The notes under the pieces were generated by a model. That model had not been told where the DNA came from. It did not search any database and worked only from the letters and a program-made list of their open reading frames with translations. Positions 1,192-13,372 of a stretch of DNA of 26,219 bases are shown one piece after another. The translations under genes and the position numbers were made by a program. Source of the DNA: an uncultured Gammaproteobacteria bacterium (GTDB taxonomy: Bacteria; Pseudomonadota; Gammaproteobacteria; Xanthomonadales; SZUA-36); assembly GCA_965652335.1 (NCBI GenBank), contig CBFGWJ010000001.1, positions 1 through 26,219 of the forward strand. Direction: 5' to 3'. Each line of letters starts with the position of its first letter. Position 1 is the first letter of the stretch.

Positions 1192-1209
1192 AACGATGGA
1201 AGCCAGAAA

Positions 1210-1524
1210 GTGATTCGCCTGAGCGTGTTTTACACTATTCCCCCGGACGCCGATGAAGACCAGTACGTGGCATGGCGGTTGACCGCTCACCAGGACTACA
1301 TCAAGTCCATGCCTGGCGTCATACGCAGTGATTTCTGCCGTATCACCGACAGCTGGCCGGCCGAAACCGCCCTGAACTACCGGTTCATGTCGACCACCGA
1401 CTGGCCTGACCGGGAAAGCTATGAACGCGCCTTCCTCAACGACCAGGCCCAGGCGGACTTGCGCGAAAACCTCAGGAAGCTGGGTTCCTACGTCTTTACC
1501 GTAAGCGAAGTCCTGTCACATTAG
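1210..1524 (+). CDS. EthD-like dimeric alpha/beta-barrel protein
   Basis: 104 aa with the pattern of EthD/DABB proteins (W..AH..YIKSMPGV, later W.DRESYE.AF). It starts 18 bp after the NYN gene on the same strand. Confidence 0.6.
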   Translation: MIRLSVFYTIPPDADEDQYVAWRLTAHQDYIKSMPGVIRSDFCRITDSWPAETALNYRFMSTTDWPDRESYERAFLNDQAQADLRENLRKLGSYVFTVSEVLSH

Positions 1525-1544
1525 CGAGCGTTGACGCCTGGCAC

Positions 1545-2531
1545 TCACCAATGATCGACCAGGGTCGGCCAGCTTTCCATACCATCACCTTGAGTTTTCC
1601 TCGTCCAGAGATATTGAGCCGGGCGTGGTGGCGAAGGGCAATCCGCAGTTGTCCCCTGGCCTGATGTCTTCACCTTCAGTTCTGTTGCGAATGAATTGGC
1701 TGTCAGCTGAGTGATGCCATGGCTCTGATTGTGATCGACGTAGTTAACCTGGGAGATGAACACCACATAGTCATTCCCGGGCTTGAGTGTCATGGCCGGC
1801 ACGGTGGCTGACGTATCATTGAAGTCGACAAAATCCTCGTCGGTACCCGGTGCGCCGCCGGTGTAAACGACATCGCCACGGCAGTCGGAAACCAGCACGA
1901 ATATGAGGTCATCCCATTCGGTTCCTTCCAGGGTGGCACCGATGCTGAAAGGATCCCAGGACACGACCAGGGGCAAATCGGCATCCAGTTCCATCACGTT
2001 ATCAACCGGCGCACCGTTCTGATGCAGGCGAATGGTGCTGACCGGAGGAATCTGGGTCTTTCCTTCAGGGCCGCCAATCCGCACCGGGTCGAGCGTGAAA
2101 TGGCCGTTAGGTCCTTCGATCTCCCAGACATAGGTTTGCGTGGGTGAATGAACGGTTTCAAGGCTTGCCAGGTCATCGAAAGACCGGGTCTTGCGGGTGT
2201 AGAAATAGCCATTGGTAAACGCCCGCTTGTCCTTCCCGCCGTAGTCAGCCAGTGAGTCCATAGTGTCGCCGCGATACAGGGTTGCGGAAATGGCATCAAA
2301 ATCCCGCTCACTGTCAAAAATGATTTCTGCCAGGAAATGGACATCCGTCAGGTGCAACTGCCCTTCCTGGTTTTGTTCGTAGGTCAGGTATTTTTCAACC
2401 CAGGTCATGGTCACATCGGGGCTCTGGGTTGTGCCGGCAGTACCATCCTGTGCTTCGGCCTGAAAAGGCACCTGGCAGAGTGACGCCAGCACCAGCAGAG
2501 AGGTTGTTCGCAAGTTTCCTGACAGGTTCAT
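1545..2531 (-). CDS. Hypothetical secreted protein (signal peptide, acidic, beta-rich)
   Basis: 328-aa ORF with RBS GGAGGA (reverse complement of 2541-2546) and an N-terminal hydrophobic stretch ending AEA-Q. It starts 39 bp downstream of the ALDH stop. No family recognised. Confidence 0.75.
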   Translation of the reverse strand: MNLSGNLRTTSLLVLASLCQVPFQAEAQDGTAGTTQSPDVTMTWVEKYLTYEQNQEGQLHLTDVHFLAEIIFDSERDFDAISATLYRGDTMDSLADYGGKDKRAFTNGYFYTRKTRSFDDLASLETVHSPTQTYVWEIEGPNGHFTLDPVRIGGPEGKTQIPPVSTIRLHQNGAPVDNVMELDADLPLVVSWDPFSIGATLEGTEWDDLIFVLVSDCRGDVVYTGGAPGTDEDFVDFNDTSATVPAMTLKPGNDYVVFISQVNYVDHNQSHGITQLTANSFATELKVKTSGQGTTADCPSPPRPAQYLWTRKTQGDGMESWPTLVDHW

Positions 2532-2570
2532 GGCGTCTGTTCCTCCAGTGTTTGACGGGTTGCAGGGCAG

Positions 2571-4157
2571 TTACTGCAGAGCCGGCAGGGTCCAGCCGGC
2601 GGTGAGGTCACCCTCATCAAAAACGATCTCCCGGTGGCCGCTCCAGGTGCTGATGATGGCTTCCGGCGTGCCGATTCCCGCCGCACGGGGATCACCACAA
2701 GGGCCGAACCAATGGTTCTGCGGCGCTCCGGTGGTACGGGCGCGCATGCCGCAGTAAGTGGTTCCGTTCACGGTGGCGGCCAGGATGCGGTTCTGGAATG
2801 CGACGTCGGCGCTGACCACCGCTGCGGTGAGGTGATGCGACATGTCTTCCAGGAGTTGCAGCACCTGCGGTAGATCACGGCCTGAATAACTGGCCACTAT
2901 TTGAAAGGGGCCAAACAACTCCGTGGTCAGGACATCAAAATAACCACCCTGCAGCTGCGACAAGGGAACACTGACAGCGGTAGGTTCATACGCGGCATAG
3001 CACCCGGGTACCGAATGGCCCTGCAGCGGCGAACCTCCAAACAGCAATTTGCTGCCCGGCACCTGCAGGACGGCATCGATGTGGGCCTGCACCTCGCCAT
3101 TGGTCAGTGACAACAGAGGTCCGTTGCTGAGATCCTCCAGGCCGCGGCGACCCGCCAGGCTTTTCAGGCGCGGCAACAGTGCCGTCTCCCAGTTTTCGTG
3201 CACCAGCAGGAGGCTTTGCGCCGAGCACTTCTGCCCAGCTGCGTTGTAGGCGTCCTCATCGCACTGCCAGGCCACATAGTCCAGCCATTTCCCGTCAAAG
3301 TCCGGCCCGATGACTTTCCAGTCGAAACCCGCGTCTTCGATGCGCACCCGGCCGTTCACGCTGGCCGATACGGATTCGGCCACCGTGCTGGACCCGGTGA
3401 ACTGGATCATGCGGATCTGCTCCGACGCGGAATGTATCAGGTTGCCCATGCGCTCGCCGCGGCAGTGGATCAGATCGATGTCACCAGGCGGCAGGCCGCA
3501 ATGGATCAGAAGCCGCAGGAACTGCTCAAACACGATGCTGACTTTGGAATCCACTTTCACCAGCGGCCGGTTGCCCATGAACAGGGCTCCGAGCGCCTGC
3601 AAAGCGGGTATCTCGAGCGGAAAATTGAACGGGGCGATCACCACCACCGGCCCGTAAGGCCAGCGGTAGCCGCGGGATTCCTGTCCGGTCCGGTCTCCCG
3701 GGTTGGAAAAGCCCCGGCCGAGGAAACGAACGCCATCGCCACTGAAATTTTCCAGGAAGACTCGGGTGACGATGACTTCATTCACGCATTGCTGGCGGCT
3801 CTTGGGCATGACCCGCTGGACCAGACGGACAAAGAACTCTTCAATTGCAGGTTCGGCGAGGCTCGCAGCTGCGCGGGCGCAGACTTTTCCCAACAGGACA
3901 TAACGTTCCGTATTCTTGAACGGATTGTGCAGGCCGGATTTCGGGCAGCTGATCAGCCCCTGCAGGAAGGGCGCGGCATCGCGCGTATCAGGCACTTCGA
4001 GGAAGTGCTCCCCGTTCAGCGGATCGACAATGTCGTCCCGCCAGGTACCGGCGGCGTTCCACTCACCATTCACCAGGTTCAGGCATTGGCCGGGGCTCCG
4101 CCCGGTCATGCCGTTCACCGGATCGACGGTGGCAAAAGCAGCGACAGGGTCACTCAT
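2571..4157 (-). CDS. Aldehyde dehydrogenase of the ALDH12 family (plant-type delta-1-pyrroline-5-carboxylate / glutamate-5-semialdehyde dehydrogenase)
   Basis: ALDH catalytic motifs PFNFP, QFTGS, EDAG, GQKCSA and ELFGP. ALDH12-type blocks RWPYGP, LEDAGFDWK-like IEDAGFDWK, DYVAWQC and RTTGAPQNHWFGP.GDPR.AGIGTPEAI. The start is the ATG at 4157 or the TTG at 4160. Confidence 0.88.
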   Translation of the reverse strand: MSDPVAAFATVDPVNGMTGRSPGQCLNLVNGEWNAAGTWRDDIVDPLNGEHFLEVPDTRDAAPFLQGLISCPKSGLHNPFKNTERYVLLGKVCARAAASLAEPAIEEFFVRLVQRVMPKSRQQCVNEVIVTRVFLENFSGDGVRFLGRGFSNPGDRTGQESRGYRWPYGPVVVIAPFNFPLEIPALQALGALFMGNRPLVKVDSKVSIVFEQFLRLLIHCGLPPGDIDLIHCRGERMGNLIHSASEQIRMIQFTGSSTVAESVSASVNGRVRIEDAGFDWKVIGPDFDGKWLDYVAWQCDEDAYNAAGQKCSAQSLLLVHENWETALLPRLKSLAGRRGLEDLSNGPLLSLTNGEVQAHIDAVLQVPGSKLLFGGSPLQGHSVPGCYAAYEPTAVSVPLSQLQGGYFDVLTTELFGPFQIVASYSGRDLPQVLQLLEDMSHHLTAAVVSADVAFQNRILAATVNGTTYCGMRARTTGAPQNHWFGPCGDPRAAGIGTPEAIISTWSGHREIVFDEGDLTAGWTLPALQ

Positions 4158-4431
4158 CAAAACACGACTCCGAATAAAAGCATGAACGAAGGAACCCGCA
4201 AATCACAGGTGAACCGGGCGCGACTGTTGCTGCTGGATGTTCCGCAGGCGATCGCGATTCGATGCTCATACTAATGGCAGCGGAAGCCCTTCGCGATGAG
4301 CTTGTCAGCAAGCCGACTTCATTTATTTCTGATCTTAAAAGCCCTGCCGTACCGGTAACATCCATCGCTGATCCCTGACCACCAGGAAATCTGTGATACT
4401 GCCGTAACCCACCCCGTCAGGAGCCCAGGCC

Positions 4432-5640
4432 ATGAACCCAAGAATTCTCTGCATCCTGGCACTGGGTATGGTGGCCAATGTGTATATTCCCGCGGCGCCC
4501 TCGATACTGGGGGCGCTGGTCGACTACCAGGGCTGGTCCGAAAGCGCGGCGGGGCAACTCATCGCCTTCAATTTCTGGGGTGGCGCTGTTGCTACGGTGC
4601 TGGCCGTGTACTTCCTGCACCGCCCGGGCTGGAGCCTGCGGCTCACCATGTTGGCTTGTTTGCTGACGGTTGCACTTACCAGTGCGGGCTCGGTCTGGTT
4701 TGCCAGCAGCTTTGAATGGCTTGCTGCCGTCCGCTTCCTCAATGGCATGGGCGCCGGCCTGGGTTTTACCGTGGCTTCGGTTGCCCTGGTTGGCACGCCG
4801 CGGGCAGAGCGGTCCTATGCCCTGTTGTACGGGTCGCCGTTCGTGATCAGCGGCGCTGCGCTGGCCGGCCTGCCTCATGTCTACCAGGCGTTCGGCATCG
4901 AAGGCGCGTTTTACGGCATGGGTGCGTTGAACCTCCTGGCCTGCGCAGGGCTGCGATATTTTCCGGCAACCGTGAGCGGCAGCGTGGAGGGGGAAAAGGC
5001 CGACCAGCCGCTGGTGCTGCAATCGCTTTACCTGCTTCCCGGCCTGGTGTTGGCAGCGTTGTTCCTGCACTACGTATTCAACTCGGGAATCTGGACCTAC
5101 TTTGAAAGGCTGGGGGTTGCCTACGGAATGTCGGCGGCGACCGCCGGTACGATACTGGGACCGAGCATGTCCGCATCGATCCTCGGCATGATTGCAGCGG
5201 CTGTCCTCGGAGACCGTTTTGGTTACCTGAAGCCCATTTACTTTGGTACAGCGCTCATCACACTGGCAACGCTGTCCCTGTTGTTTTCGCGGTACGAAGC
5301 GGTTTTTGGCCTGGGCACGGCGCTTTTCAATGCCAGCATCCCTTTTGTCACGCCTTACTTCATCGTCCTGCTGGCAAAAATCGTTCCTTCCGGCCGCGGT
5401 GTATCCTCGGCAAACGTGGCCACGCTGCTGGGCTTTTCGGCTGGCCCTTTCCTGGTTTCATTCCTGCTCAGCGACTCCGACTTCAAGCCCGCCATTTTCC
5501 TCACGGCGGCCGGGTTCCTGGTGGTGCTGGGACTGATGACTCTATTCGCCTACAAGCTCAAGGCGGAGACCAGGGGAAATGCCGAGCTGAAGATCCTGTC
5601 AGGCAATCCGCGGGGAGGACATGAAGCCAAGAGCCACTGA
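4432..5640 (+). CDS. Major facilitator superfamily transporter
   Basis: 402 aa with about 12 hydrophobic segments, motif A-like GDRFGY in the C-terminal half, RFLNGMGAG in the N-terminal half, and RBS AGGAG at 4419-4423. Confidence 0.88.
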   Translation: MNPRILCILALGMVANVYIPAAPSILGALVDYQGWSESAAGQLIAFNFWGGAVATVLAVYFLHRPGWSLRLTMLACLLTVALTSAGSVWFASSFEWLAAVRFLNGMGAGLGFTVASVALVGTPRAERSYALLYGSPFVISGAALAGLPHVYQAFGIEGAFYGMGALNLLACAGLRYFPATVSGSVEGEKADQPLVLQSLYLLPGLVLAALFLHYVFNSGIWTYFERLGVAYGMSAATAGTILGPSMSASILGMIAAAVLGDRFGYLKPIYFGTALITLATLSLLFSRYEAVFGLGTALFNASIPFVTPYFIVLLAKIVPSGRGVSSANVATLLGFSAGPFLVSFLLSDSDFKPAIFLTAAGFLVVLGLMTLFAYKLKAETRGNAELKILSGNPRGGHEAKSH

Positions 5641-5658: not shown

Positions 5659-6741
5659 TCAGTCGAGCTTGACGATACCATTTCTCACGATTTCCCGGTC
5701 ATCTACCCGGACGGTCGGGCGAAGCACCTGTACATCCCAGTGGACCGATGATTTCGAGGTGCGGAAATCCGCCCCGACAAACGGTGCCAGCAAGCTGTTG
5801 TCGCCAATGCCGAACACCATGCCGCCGCGCACGCGCTCCCATTCCAGGTGCTCGGTCAGGCGGGCATGGCGGCTGAGCCCGATGTTGGCGTGGATGGGAC
5901 CGTTGCGGCAACCTCCGTCATTGACCTCATCCAGCCAGCCTTCGAGCCGGTGCGCAATATACGGGTCGCCGCTGATGTGGGTGATCTGCCCGGCCTCGAC
6001 GGTAAGCATCACCGGCTGCCTGGGAATGTGATGCACATTCTCATAGAGGAACAGGCCATCCAGGGCCAGTACGCCATCACCCCTGCCTTGCGGAATCACC
6101 ACGCCCGGAGTGGCGCCCGGCGTGAACTGGTAGTTGGATACCCAATCATTCGATTCGCGATCCCACAGGAACCCGTCGAAGCTGTCGCCCTTCAGGTCAC
6201 TGATATCAACCGTGTAGTCCGTTCCTTCTTTTGACGTGACATGCAGGGTTTTGCCCACGGTCATTATGGCTGCCGCCGCCAGCGCCTCCTTGCGGATGGT
6301 GAACGGGTCATCCAGCAGCAGGCAGCGGATGAGCGAATCATCCATATGCGGCGCACCGGTGGCATCACCCGGGCCGATGATCCGGGCCCGGCCGCGCTGC
6401 ACGATTTTGACCATGAAGTCGGCATAACCAATGGCCATATCCACCACCAGGTCTGCATGCTCCGCCGCTGCCAGGATGGCGCTGGAAAAAAGCGGGTCCC
6501 AGGTAAAGCCGGGTTGGTAGGCCGGGTGTGGCCCCATCGGTACGCGCATTTCCAGCACTTCGGCATTGAACTGCATGGCAACGCCGGCAAAAGCCGTGGT
6601 GATGTGCTGGGGCGTGTGGGAATCGCTGATGATGAGCACGCGCCATCCCGGCTGGAGATTGCATTGCTCGCGGAATATAAAATGAATCGCCTTGAGCAAT
6701 TCGGGCCTGAGATTGACGCTGACATCAGAATATTCAGCCAT
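5659..6741 (-). CDS. Peptidase M29-fold metalloprotein, NicX (2,5-dihydroxypyridine dioxygenase)-like, paralog 1
   Basis: 360 aa with RBS GAGGA. Motifs VLIISD, ADLVVD, LHVTS..GTD, G.L.LDG, LTVE.G.IT.I.G, GPIHANIG and VHWD...P..VDD..IV..G fit the M29/NicX fold. The fold call is more secure than the activity. Confidence 0.7.
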   Translation of the reverse strand: MAEYSDVSVNLRPELLKAIHFIFREQCNLQPGWRVLIISDSHTPQHITTAFAGVAMQFNAEVLEMRVPMGPHPAYQPGFTWDPLFSSAILAAAEHADLVVDMAIGYADFMVKIVQRGRARIIGPGDATGAPHMDDSLIRCLLLDDPFTIRKEALAAAAIMTVGKTLHVTSKEGTDYTVDISDLKGDSFDGFLWDRESNDWVSNYQFTPGATPGVVIPQGRGDGVLALDGLFLYENVHHIPRQPVMLTVEAGQITHISGDPYIAHRLEGWLDEVNDGGCRNGPIHANIGLSRHARLTEHLEWERVRGGMVFGIGDNSLLAPFVGADFRTSKSSVHWDVQVLRPTVRVDDREIVRNGIVKLD

Positions 6742-9490: not shown

Positions 9491-11074
9491 ATGGAATCGG
9501 AACTTGCACCGCTGTTGAAACGTGTGAGCCACCTGCTGCAGTCGGATCAGCTGGCGCAGGCAGCAACCACGCTGGCGCCGCTGAAGGCCTCCCATGCCAA
9601 TGTGGGTGATGTCTGGGCGCTGGACGGCGAAATCGCCATCCGCCAGGGGCGGCTGCAGGATGCCTTGCTGGCGGTGGACAAGGCTGCTGAACTGGAAAGC
9701 CACCTGCCCGACCGTCACATCCAGCGCGCCCGGTGCCAGGTCCTGGCCGGAAAGATCGATGAAGCCCGCCAATCAGCCTTGCGTTGCCTTGGCTCCGGCA
9801 TCACCCGGGCTGATCACCTGCTGGTCCTTGGCAGTGTGCTGGTTCGTTGCGGCGAACACGACAAGGCATTGCAGGTTTATCTCAAGGCAGCCGCTGCAGT
9901 TCCAGACCATCCGGAAGCCCACCGGGGCCTGGCGTCGGTGTACCGCTTCCTCGGGCGGTTGGAAGAGGCGGAAGCTGCATGCGACCGCACCCTGCAACTG
10001 GACCCGAATGACTACGAAATCCTTGGCCTGCGATCCTCGCTGAGAACACAGACAACCAGCCGGAATCATGTCGAGGAGTTGCTGAACTTGCAGGCACAGG
10101 GCATACGAAGCTGGCGTGGCCGCGTGCATGTGGCCTATGCCCTGGCCAAGGAATATGAAGACCTGGGTGAGTACGGGCTGTCGTTTGCCGCCCTGCAGCA
10201 GGGGGCCACCATCAAGCGGGAACATATCCGCTACAACCATGCTGATGACCTGCAAATATTTGCCAGCCTTAAATCCGCCTACTCAAAGGAAGCATTCCGC
10301 AGGATCCGCGGGACAGGGCACTCGAGCAAGGAGCCTGTTTTCGTGCTTGGCATGCCACCGACCGGCTCAACCCTGGTTGAGCGTATCATCACTTCCCACA
10401 GCGCAGTCCAGGGGATGGGAGAGCTGAGTACGTTCTCGCTGGAAATGATGGCGCTGGTGCGGCAGCAATCGGGTGGCCAGTCGCTGGACCGCCTGGGCCT
10501 GGCTGAACGGACCCTGGCACTGCCGATGAAAGCCCTGGGTGAAAACTATCTTCGTGCGGTAGCCCCGGCCAGGGACGGCAGTCCCAGGTTCGTCGACAAG
10601 CTGCCATTGAACTGCCTGAATACCGGCACCATCGCCGCCGCCCTGCCCAACGCAAAAATCGTGCATGTGGTGCGCCACCCGATGGATGCCTGCTACGCGA
10701 TGTACAAATACCTGTTCAAGAACGGCTATCCCTTTTCCTACACACTGCCGGAACTGGCTGGGTATTACATCGAATACCATCGCCTGATGCAGCACTGGCG
10801 GGAAATCCTGCCGCCGGGGCAGATGCATGAGATCAAGTACGAACAGCTGGTGGAAAACCTGGAGACTGAAGCGCGAAAGCTGCTCGCGTTCCTGGAGTTG
10901 CCGTGGCAAGAATCCTGCATCCGTTTTCACCAGAACAGCCAGGCTTCCACCACCGGAAGCGCGGCGCAGGTCCGCCGGCCCGTATACTCCTCATCGGTGG
11001 GAAAATGGCGATGTTTCGAGCAGCAGCTTCGGCCATTGCAGCAGGCGCTGCAATCAGCGGGAATTGAGGTTTGA
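9491..11074 (+). CDS. TPR-repeat sulfotransferase-family protein
   Basis: N-terminal TPR repeats, 5'-PSB-like PVFVLGMPPTGSTLVE, FVDKLP, 3'-PB RHPMDAC, and C-terminal TGSAAQVRRPVYSSSVGKW. Confidence 0.9.
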   Translation: MESELAPLLKRVSHLLQSDQLAQAATTLAPLKASHANVGDVWALDGEIAIRQGRLQDALLAVDKAAELESHLPDRHIQRARCQVLAGKIDEARQSALRCLGSGITRADHLLVLGSVLVRCGEHDKALQVYLKAAAAVPDHPEAHRGLASVYRFLGRLEEAEAACDRTLQLDPNDYEILGLRSSLRTQTTSRNHVEELLNLQAQGIRSWRGRVHVAYALAKEYEDLGEYGLSFAALQQGATIKREHIRYNHADDLQIFASLKSAYSKEAFRRIRGTGHSSKEPVFVLGMPPTGSTLVERIITSHSAVQGMGELSTFSLEMMALVRQQSGGQSLDRLGLAERTLALPMKALGENYLRAVAPARDGSPRFVDKLPLNCLNTGTIAAALPNAKIVHVVRHPMDACYAMYKYLFKNGYPFSYTLPELAGYYIEYHRLMQHWREILPPGQMHEIKYEQLVENLETEARKLLAFLELPWQESCIRFHQNSQASTTGSAAQVRRPVYSSSVGKWRCFEQQLRPLQQALQSAGIEV

Positions 11075-12292: not shown

Positions 12293-13372
12293 ATGAGCAT
12301 GATTTCACCCGATGTTTCCTCCCGGCTCAAGCCTGACCTGATTGCCGTGGTCAAGCTGATCTATGAACAGAACTGCAATCTGCAGGCCGGCCAGAACGTA
12401 CTGATCATCAGTGATGCCCGCACTCCGCACTACGTGGTCGCCACCTTCCAGGGTATGGCCCTGGCCATGGGGGCGGAAGCCGTGACCATGGAATGCCGGA
12501 TTCCCACCGGGGGCGCCACTTACCAACCCGGCTCAAAGTGGCCTGCCATGCTGGCCGCAGCAGCCATGGAGGCCGATCTCATCATCGACATGGCGGTGGG
12601 TTACGCCGACTTCATCATCAAGGCCATTCACAATGGCGCCAGGGTGCTGTGCCCGGGCGACGGTATTGGCGGCCCGTTCATGGACGATGTGCTGATCCGC
12701 ACCATGCTTCACACCGACATCCACGCGATACGCCGGCATGCCAAGCGCATCGCCCGAAGGTTTACCGACGCTTCCGTCTGCACGGTAATGACTGGCGATG
12801 ATGTGCTGGAGATCGACCTGACTGGCGTGGAGGGCATCGCAGGCTGCGGCTTCCTCTGGGACCCGGATGAACAGGACTGGATGTCCACCTGGGATTTCCT
12901 TCCACCCGCCCAACCGGGCATTGCGGTGCCGAAGGGTCGGGGCAATGGCTCCATCTGGGTGGACGGCACCCTGCTTTACCACCCGATCTATCATGAGAAG
13001 CCCGATTCGCCGGTGAGACTGACCTTCAAGGATGGACGGCTTGTAGCCATCGGCGGAAACGATGTGCTGGCCCCGCGGTTGGAAGCCTGGCTGGCGAAGC
13101 TGGGTGACGAGGGTGCCTACAACGGCCCGGTGCATCTCAACATCGGCAACAATCCGAACGCGATGTTGACCCAGAGCCAGGAATGGGAGCGGGTGTATGG
13201 GTCCATTACCTGCGGCATGGGCGATTTCAGTTTCGTGAACGCACTCGACCCCAGCATACCCCTGGAAACGCTGAGCAAGTCAACGGTGCATTGGGACTGG
13301 ACCGTACTACAACCCAGGATTTTCCTTGATGATGACCTGATCGTCGAACGCGGCAACATTTTATGCGATTGA
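12293..13372 (+). CDS. Peptidase M29-fold metalloprotein, NicX-like, paralog 2
   Basis: 359 aa, colinear with 5659..6741 (CNLQ.G, VLIISD, DMA.GYADF, GFLWD, EWERV.G). Carries GPVHLNIG and VHWD. Confidence 0.7.
   Translation: MSMISPDVSSRLKPDLIAVVKLIYEQNCNLQAGQNVLIISDARTPHYVVATFQGMALAMGAEAVTMECRIPTGGATYQPGSKWPAMLAAAAMEADLIIDMAVGYADFIIKAIHNGARVLCPGDGIGGPFMDDVLIRTMLHTDIHAIRRHAKRIARRFTDASVCTVMTGDDVLEIDLTGVEGIAGCGFLWDPDEQDWMSTWDFLPPAQPGIAVPKGRGNGSIWVDGTLLYHPIYHEKPDSPVRLTFKDGRLVAIGGNDVLAPRLEAWLAKLGDEGAYNGPVHLNIGNNPNAMLTQSQEWERVYGSITCGMGDFSFVNALDPSIPLETLSKSTVHWDWTVLQPRIFLDDDLIVERGNILCD

Follow-up and report, generated by a model that had tools for sequence, protein, structure and literature searches.

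An intact ALDH12-family aldehyde dehydrogenase gene in a gammaproteobacterial genome and its bacterial relatives

The window analyzed here is a stretch of 26,219 nucleotides (contig CBFGWJ010000001.1, assembly GCA_965652335.1) from an uncultured gammaproteobacterium. An ORF for an aldehyde dehydrogenase (ALDH) of the ALDH12 family lies on its minus strand. According to the ORF list and the minus-strand translation, this ORF (2571..4160, minus strand) is uninterrupted and encodes 529 aa from a TTG codon, and an ATG one codon later, at 4157, gives a protein of 528 aa. The plus-strand translation of the same coordinates is full of stops. A preliminary description of this DNA had called the ORF uninterrupted without naming the strand, and this was confirmed on the minus strand. 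The features of the gene are as follows.

2571..4157, minus strand: coding sequence of the ALDH12-family aldehyde dehydrogenase, 528 aa (ATG 4157-4155, stop 2573-2571; from the ORF list, PDB 6d97 and Pfam Aldedh)
4160-4158, minus strand: alternative start codon TTG, one codon upstream of the ATG (ORF list)
4168..4171, minus strand: putative Shine-Dalgarno-like GGAG, read from the minus-strand sequence
4158..4431, no strand: divergent spacer of 274 bp between the ALDH12 gene (minus) and the MFS transporter gene (plus), from the ORF coordinates; presumed promoter region
3624..3626, minus strand: codon of Asn178, oxyanion-hole Asn in the motif PFNFPLE (invariant alignment column; position counted on the HMMER alignment to PDB)
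3336..3338, minus strand: codon of Glu274, general-base Glu in the motif IEDAG (invariant column; aligned with LEDAG of maize ALDH12)
3225..3227, minus strand: codon of Cys311, catalytic nucleophile in the motif GQKCSAQS (invariant column; identical motif in maize ALDH12)

With the GGAG 7 nt ahead of the TTG and 10 nt ahead of the ATG, both codons could serve as the start, and the difference is one residue. A scan for the sigma-70 consensus gave no promoter-like site in window 1200-4500, and the terminator-like sites numbered 5, against 3.0 expected by chance. The GC content of the gene (0.60-0.615) is like that of its surroundings (0.55-0.64), and there is no compositional sign of recent transfer.

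The neighbours of the gene in the window are a 328-aa ORF, the divergent MFS transporter gene, and genes for a TonB-dependent receptor, a protein with TPR and sulfotransferase domains, a LysR regulator and two NicX-like paralogues. The 328-aa ORF (1545-2531, minus strand) lies 40 bp downstream of the ALDH12 gene on the same strand and has no relative in Pfam, NCBIfam or PDB. The NicX-like paralogues (5659-6741, minus strand, and 12293-13372, plus strand) are about 360 aa long, share 42% identity and belong to no Pfam family. The TPR protein (9491-11074, plus strand; 527 aa) combines TPR repeats with a Sulfotransfer_3 domain, and a 40%-identical relative lies near the ALDH12 gene of another locus, L030. 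In addition, a protein with an NYN domain (predicted RNase) and a weak C-terminal OST-HTH/LOTUS match is encoded at 256-1191 on the plus strand.

The best match of the window protein among PDB sequences was 6d97_A, 'Aldehyde dehydrogenase 12' (phmmer, E = 7.8e-191, 638 bits), which aligns at chain residues 28-545 with query residues 7-526, and the second-best solved ALDH reached only E = 8.4e-19. In the convention of ALDH nomenclature, proteins with more than 40% identity are placed in the same family. This threshold is exceeded by the identity to rice ALDH12 (P0433), which is 55% over 523 residues in BLASTP. The Pfam match is the generic Aldedh only (4e-37), and all clusters obtained from the ESM Atlas were likewise generic aldehyde dehydrogenases, from mixed taxa. 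No NCBIfam model was above its cut-off. The models for P5C dehydrogenases (P5CDH) gave 51-86 bits against curated cut-offs of 485-1750, for instance NF002852 (83.2 against 648), TIGR01236 (51.5 against 613.6), TIGR01237 (64.6 against 659.65), TIGR01238 (73.6 against 485.2) and NF008869 (86.3 against 747). We thus rejected a RocA, ALDH4 or PutA-type P5C dehydrogenase.

The RocA/PutC type, the ALDH4 type and the C-terminal domain of PutA belong to the same superfamily (Pfam Aldedh) and presumably catalyze the same reaction, GSAL + NAD+ -> glutamate. However, they are another ALDH family: the P5CDH and PutA chains of PDB match the window protein at E values of 1e-13 to 1e-17, and the ALDH domain of PutA from the window's own genome is 27% identical to it. 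Meanwhile, the protein is collinear over its full length with the plant ALDH12 enzymes (maize ZmALDH12, PDB 6D97; Arabidopsis ALDH12A1; rice Os05g0536400). It keeps their catalytic Asn, Glu and Cys, the KVDSKVSIV motif of the cofactor region and the C-terminal block TTGAPQNHWFGP...GIGTPEAI. All eight motifs by which the resemblance had originally been recognized, namely FATVD, DPLNGEHF, CPKSGLHNPFK, RWPYGP, KVDSKVSIV, EDAGFDWKVIGPD, DYVAWQCDEDAYNAAGQKCSAQS and TTGAPQNHWFGPCGDPRAAGIGTPEAI, are present in the minus-strand translation. Plant ALDH12 carries a mitochondrial presequence, whereas the window protein lacks it and begins about 24-30 residues later, at the mature domain. Query residue 8 is aligned with rice residue 32, and the earlier remark that the protein starts about where the plant presequence ends is borne out. 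The absence of the presequence is expected because the copy is bacterial, and the presequence is not a family-defining catalytic feature. Furthermore, plant ALDH12 is eukaryotic, whereas the window member resides in a bacterium, its enzymatic activity is a predicted one, and the hosts of the bacterial copies usually also have PutA.

We then considered the columns that define the family, using an alignment of 27 eukaryotic, 17 bacterial and 2 distant sequences. There were 87 columns that are near-invariant in the 27 eukaryotic ALDH12 sequences, and the window protein retains 85 of them; the two departures, V for L and A for G, are conservative. All 17 bacterial copies retain 78 of the 87, and the distant bacterial relatives P0170 and P0180 retain only 57. 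Judged by these sequence comparisons, the window gene is a genuine, intact bacterial member of ALDH12, and the resemblance over nearly the full length that had been claimed for it holds.

To describe its distribution, we searched both proteins and genomes. The protein search gave 2866 proteins at E <=1e-30. The best 120 of these were 70-87% identical to the query, except the query's own entry and one plant protein (55%). They were mostly metagenomic, and the named ones were listed as 'Woeseiaceae bacterium' or 'Gammaproteobacteria bacterium' (NCBI) and '1-pyrroline-5-carboxylate dehydrogenase' (JGI). In a scan that took a single genome for each prokaryotic species, 280 related stretches came up. 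Of these 280, the best 80 were 67-75% identical, plus one at 99%, and all came from MAGs labelled Woeseiaceae, Woeseia, Gammaproteobacteria, Proteobacteria, Lysobacterales, Chromatiales or Wenzhouxiangellaceae.

Whole-genome searches found ALDH12 in 147 of the 267 species genomes of the Woeseiaceae-labelled family (the family of G1045; Woeseiaceae is the label in NCBI titles, and this family is distinct from the window's own). In the window's own family, ALDH12 occurred in 17 of 94 genomes and 8 of 19 genera, including 2 of the 6 other genomes of the genus. The order sample gave 3 of 200 other genomes, all from the own family, and there were none among 399 genomes of the class sample and 400 of the phylum sample. 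Outside the two families, the searches thus gave no ALDH12 in some 1,000 further Pseudomonadota genomes that were sampled. Bacterial ALDH12 is therefore routine in two gammaproteobacterial families, and the window copy is an ordinary member. That more than 150 genomes have full-length, stop-free copies is an argument for purifying selection.

Korasick et al. 2019 are said to have recorded ALDH12 in bacteria. A 2024 paper that cites this work states that ALDH12 occurs in bacteria (PMC10888605), and a 2025 review assigns the family to 'plants and some protist phyla' (PMC12041015). In the literature, we found no biochemical study or enzyme assay of any bacterial ALDH12 member, and nothing relevant on proline in Woeseiaceae or on horizontal gene transfer of ALDH12. 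The preliminary description regarded ALDH12 as rare in bacteria and held that homologs both common and already characterized in Gammaproteobacteria would speak against its reading. The rarity stands for the other Pseudomonadota sampled and not for the two families, where the gene is common; on characterization, the literature yielded no biochemical work.

The genome that contains the window is a fragmented MAG (673 contigs, 74.7% complete), from which one might suppose that the gene is a eukaryotic contamination or sits on a mis-binned contig. However, it lies within a 26-kb contig together with genes for a TonB-dependent receptor, a LysR regulator and an MFS transporter, its GC content matches the flanks, and it has neither presequence nor intron. 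Furthermore, many genomes have orthologues on bacterial contigs that are 0.4-2 Mb long, and the gene was found in more than 160 species genomes overall. We give contamination next to no probability, and the preliminary description was right to argue against it. As for the organism itself, its DNA was found at 95-100% identity in contigs from sludge and rhizosphere runs and, by shared words, also in compost and invertebrate-gut metagenomes (8 studies overall). Two runs labelled 'METAGENOMIC RNA-Seq' gave short contigs that lie over coding and intergenic parts alike and are indistinguishable from DNA.

For the phylogenetic analysis, a tree was built with IQ-TREE (LG+C20+F+G4 PMSF, 46 rows, 551 columns). 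In the representative library at 50% identity there were 184 clusters at E <=1e-30, mostly fragments. Since the closest representative was only 56% identical to the window protein, the bacterial clade appears to have been merged with eukaryotic sequences at this level of clustering. The named eukaryotes in the tree were Cicer, rice, Ginkgo, Physcomitrium, Marchantia, Closterium, Chlorokybus, Haematococcus and Tetrahymena. Among ten representatives of the 50% clusters, one alone had a name. The eukaryotic or bacterial origin of representatives was inferred from gene context for four only, and several 'unk_' rows are presumed eukaryotic. For instance, P0122 is eukaryotic, with Rpb8 and the ciliary CFAP47 among its neighbours, and so is P0143, with SNF2, RING, kinase and EF-hand neighbours. 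The tree covered the ALDH12 group and two distant bacterial relatives; the other ALDH families score 1e-18 or worse against the window protein.

The result showed that the 17 bacterial ALDH12 copies formed one clade (support 100/99, stem 0.41). The ALDH12 group, with the window copy inside it, was split from the distant bacterial P0170 and P0180 by a 100/100 branch with a length of about 2.2 on each side of the root; the phylogeny thus upheld the placement in ALDH12. Within the group, the bacterial clade, the green plants, the ciliate and the other eukaryotic lineages all emerged from one basal polytomy. ALDH12 ranges over land plants, green algae (both charophytes and chlorophytes), a ciliate and other lineages whose eukaryotic nature is either shown or presumed.

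The two distant proteins are bacterial, and nothing outside ALDH12 came closer in the search of the representatives (31-32% identity, E = 1e-56 to 1e-63); neither of them reaches the cut-off of a curated family model. P0170 (L101:2318-3928) and P0180 (L102:297-1892) adjoin a class II tRNA synthetase gene (proS), with an editing domain at P0170, and the genes for P5C reductase (proC) and glutamate 5-kinase (proB) are also near P0170. This family may be another unrecognized enzyme of proline metabolism.

Two origins had been proposed for the bacterial gene, a bacterial lineage ancestral to the eukaryotic family or a transfer from a eukaryote to a bacterium. The data fit either of the two: when the eukaryotes were constrained to be monophyletic, the cost was 5.5 log-likelihood units and the constraint was not rejected (AU p = 0.369). 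We infer that the bacterial clade goes back to a single ancient exchange with eukaryotes, and we lean toward the direction from eukaryote to bacterium, since this direction is more economical given the narrow bacterial and the broad eukaryotic range. The opposite reading, in which early eukaryotes received ALDH12 from a gammaproteobacterial lineage or from the ancestors of that lineage, would agree with the position of the bacterial clade in the basal polytomy, with the low cost of placing it as sister to an all-eukaryote clade, and with the bacterial nature of the more distant ALDH12-like proteins beside proS, proC and proB. However, ALDH12 occurs in only two families of one class among the sampled bacteria, whereas its eukaryotic range extends over land plants, green algae, a ciliate and presumed others. 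In addition, the bacterial crown, on its stem of 0.41, is shallow compared with the eukaryotic diversity, and no second bacterial lineage lies between the bacterial clade and the eukaryotes in the tree. We consider a bacterial donor rather unlikely. The more specific proposal, which takes the gammaproteobacterial clade as the sister group of all eukaryotic ALDH12 and as a marker of the donor lineage, seems quite improbable; if it were true, the last enzyme of plant proline catabolism would be gammaproteobacterial-like in origin, and not a eukaryotic invention later passed to bacteria.

Inside the bacterial clade, the copies from the window's own family were scattered among the Woeseiaceae-labelled copies. 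L073 and L067, both from the own family, were basal, and L042 and the window copy fell into a 99/99 subclade with Woeseiaceae-labelled copies. Meanwhile, the window's genome contains a second ALDH12 fragment (L002; contig C633:7-354, minus strand), which consists of the N-terminal 132 aa at a contig edge. This fragment is 59% identical to the window protein and 72-73% identical to L073 and L067, which suggests either exchange between the two families, with a paralogue of different origin, or mis-binning.

The gene neighbourhood of ALDH12 is not conserved. When the ORFs within 5 kb were clustered, no neighbour occurred in more than 16 of 76 loci, so gene context gives no general functional clue, and no conserved neighbourhood tying ALDH12 to proline or arginine catabolism was found in these loci. 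The commonest neighbours (16 of 76 loci) were a class I/II aminotransferase followed by a CN-hydrolase, downstream on the ALDH12 strand (for example, L083:2926-4296 and L095:1686-3752, both plus strand). This pair resembles glutamine transaminase and omega-amidase, that is, glutamate/glutamine-family metabolism.

The setting in the window itself could hint at a substrate other than P5C, because the gene stands in a cassette of uptake and NicX-like genes. One might propose that ALDH12 was recruited there to an uptake-and-conversion cassette and oxidizes another semialdehyde made locally, instead of GSAL. The gene has an MFS transporter gene on one side and a TonB-dependent receptor gene on the other, and the two NicX-like paralogues nearby are putative ring-cleaving dioxygenases, one of which matches 2,5-dihydroxypyridine 5,6-dioxygenase NicX (PDB 7cn3) at E = 4.4e-5 over nearly its full length. 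The same set of genes, including both NicX-like paralogues, recurs around the ALDH12 gene of a second species (L058; ALDH12 71% identical). However, among the best 80 of the 280 related loci, the cassette recurs in only two, L058 and L017, and the latter is 99% identical and thus nearly the same organism; it is also the only one of these 80 with the 328-aa ORF. The neighbours in the other 78 are unrelated to the cassette. In addition, the retention of 85 of the 87 ALDH12 columns gives no sign of a remodelled active site. The known product of the NicX reaction is not an aldehyde. Such a recruitment is in our opinion very unlikely.

We therefore return to P5C and GSAL as substrates. As far as sequence can indicate, the window protein most likely acts on free P5C as an NAD-dependent glutamate-semialdehyde dehydrogenase. 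P5C would be oxidized in its open-chain form to glutamate through the thiohemiacetal and thioester steps of the ALDH mechanism, with Cys311 as nucleophile, Glu274 as base and Asn178 providing the oxyanion hole. The cofactor is probably NAD+, like that of the plant enzyme.

It can be argued against this role that PutA is already present, which leaves no obvious need for another P5CDH. In the window's genome, a single frame of at least 761 aa encodes a bifunctional PutA that combines the Pro_dh and ALDH domains. A Pro_dh match occurs in 237 of the 267 genomes of the Woeseiaceae-labelled family, and the frames among the Pro_dh matches listed are mostly of about 1050-1100 aa, in ALDH12 carriers and non-carriers alike. 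Thus, ALDH12 does not take the place of PutA. Since the bifunctional enzyme is present in this genome and in most other carriers as well, ALDH12 most likely handles P5C and GSAL that do not come through PutA, for example from the breakdown of ornithine or arginine.

A subgroup of the ALDH12 carriers in the Woeseiaceae-labelled family differs: the five genomes examined have only a monofunctional Pro_dh frame (254-387 aa) and no PutA (L103-L107, in G1136, G1133, G1143, G1148 and G1130), and no RocA-type or ALDH4-type model was above its cut-off in these five genomes. On this gene content, ALDH12 and the monofunctional proline dehydrogenase (PRODH) would form a eukaryote-like two-enzyme set for proline oxidation, in which ALDH12 may complete the pathway, probably as the step after the monofunctional PRODH. 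This co-occurrence is indirect support for GSAL as the substrate. However, three of the PutA-less genomes have a further ALDH at a distance of 7-8 kb from the monofunctional PRODH, so ALDH12 is not the sole candidate partner.

Taken together, we consider it likely that the window encodes a working cytoplasmic GSAL/P5C dehydrogenase of the ALDH12 family, in a single bacterial clade that came from one ancient exchange with eukaryotes. It is no new kind of enzyme, pathway or system; it is part of a well-populated, uncharacterized bacterial branch of a known family. Nevertheless, ALDH12 is usually presented as the P5C dehydrogenase of plants and protists, and here it is standard in more than half of the sampled Woeseiaceae-labelled species and also occurs in part of a second family. 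The bacterial orthologues provide easy-to-express material for ALDH12 enzymology, and they raise the physiological question of why a free P5C dehydrogenase is kept beside a bifunctional PutA. Furthermore, bacterial ALDH12 offers a clean, clearly bounded example of a core enzyme of amino-acid metabolism whose gene was exchanged between eukaryotes and bacteria in the distant past.
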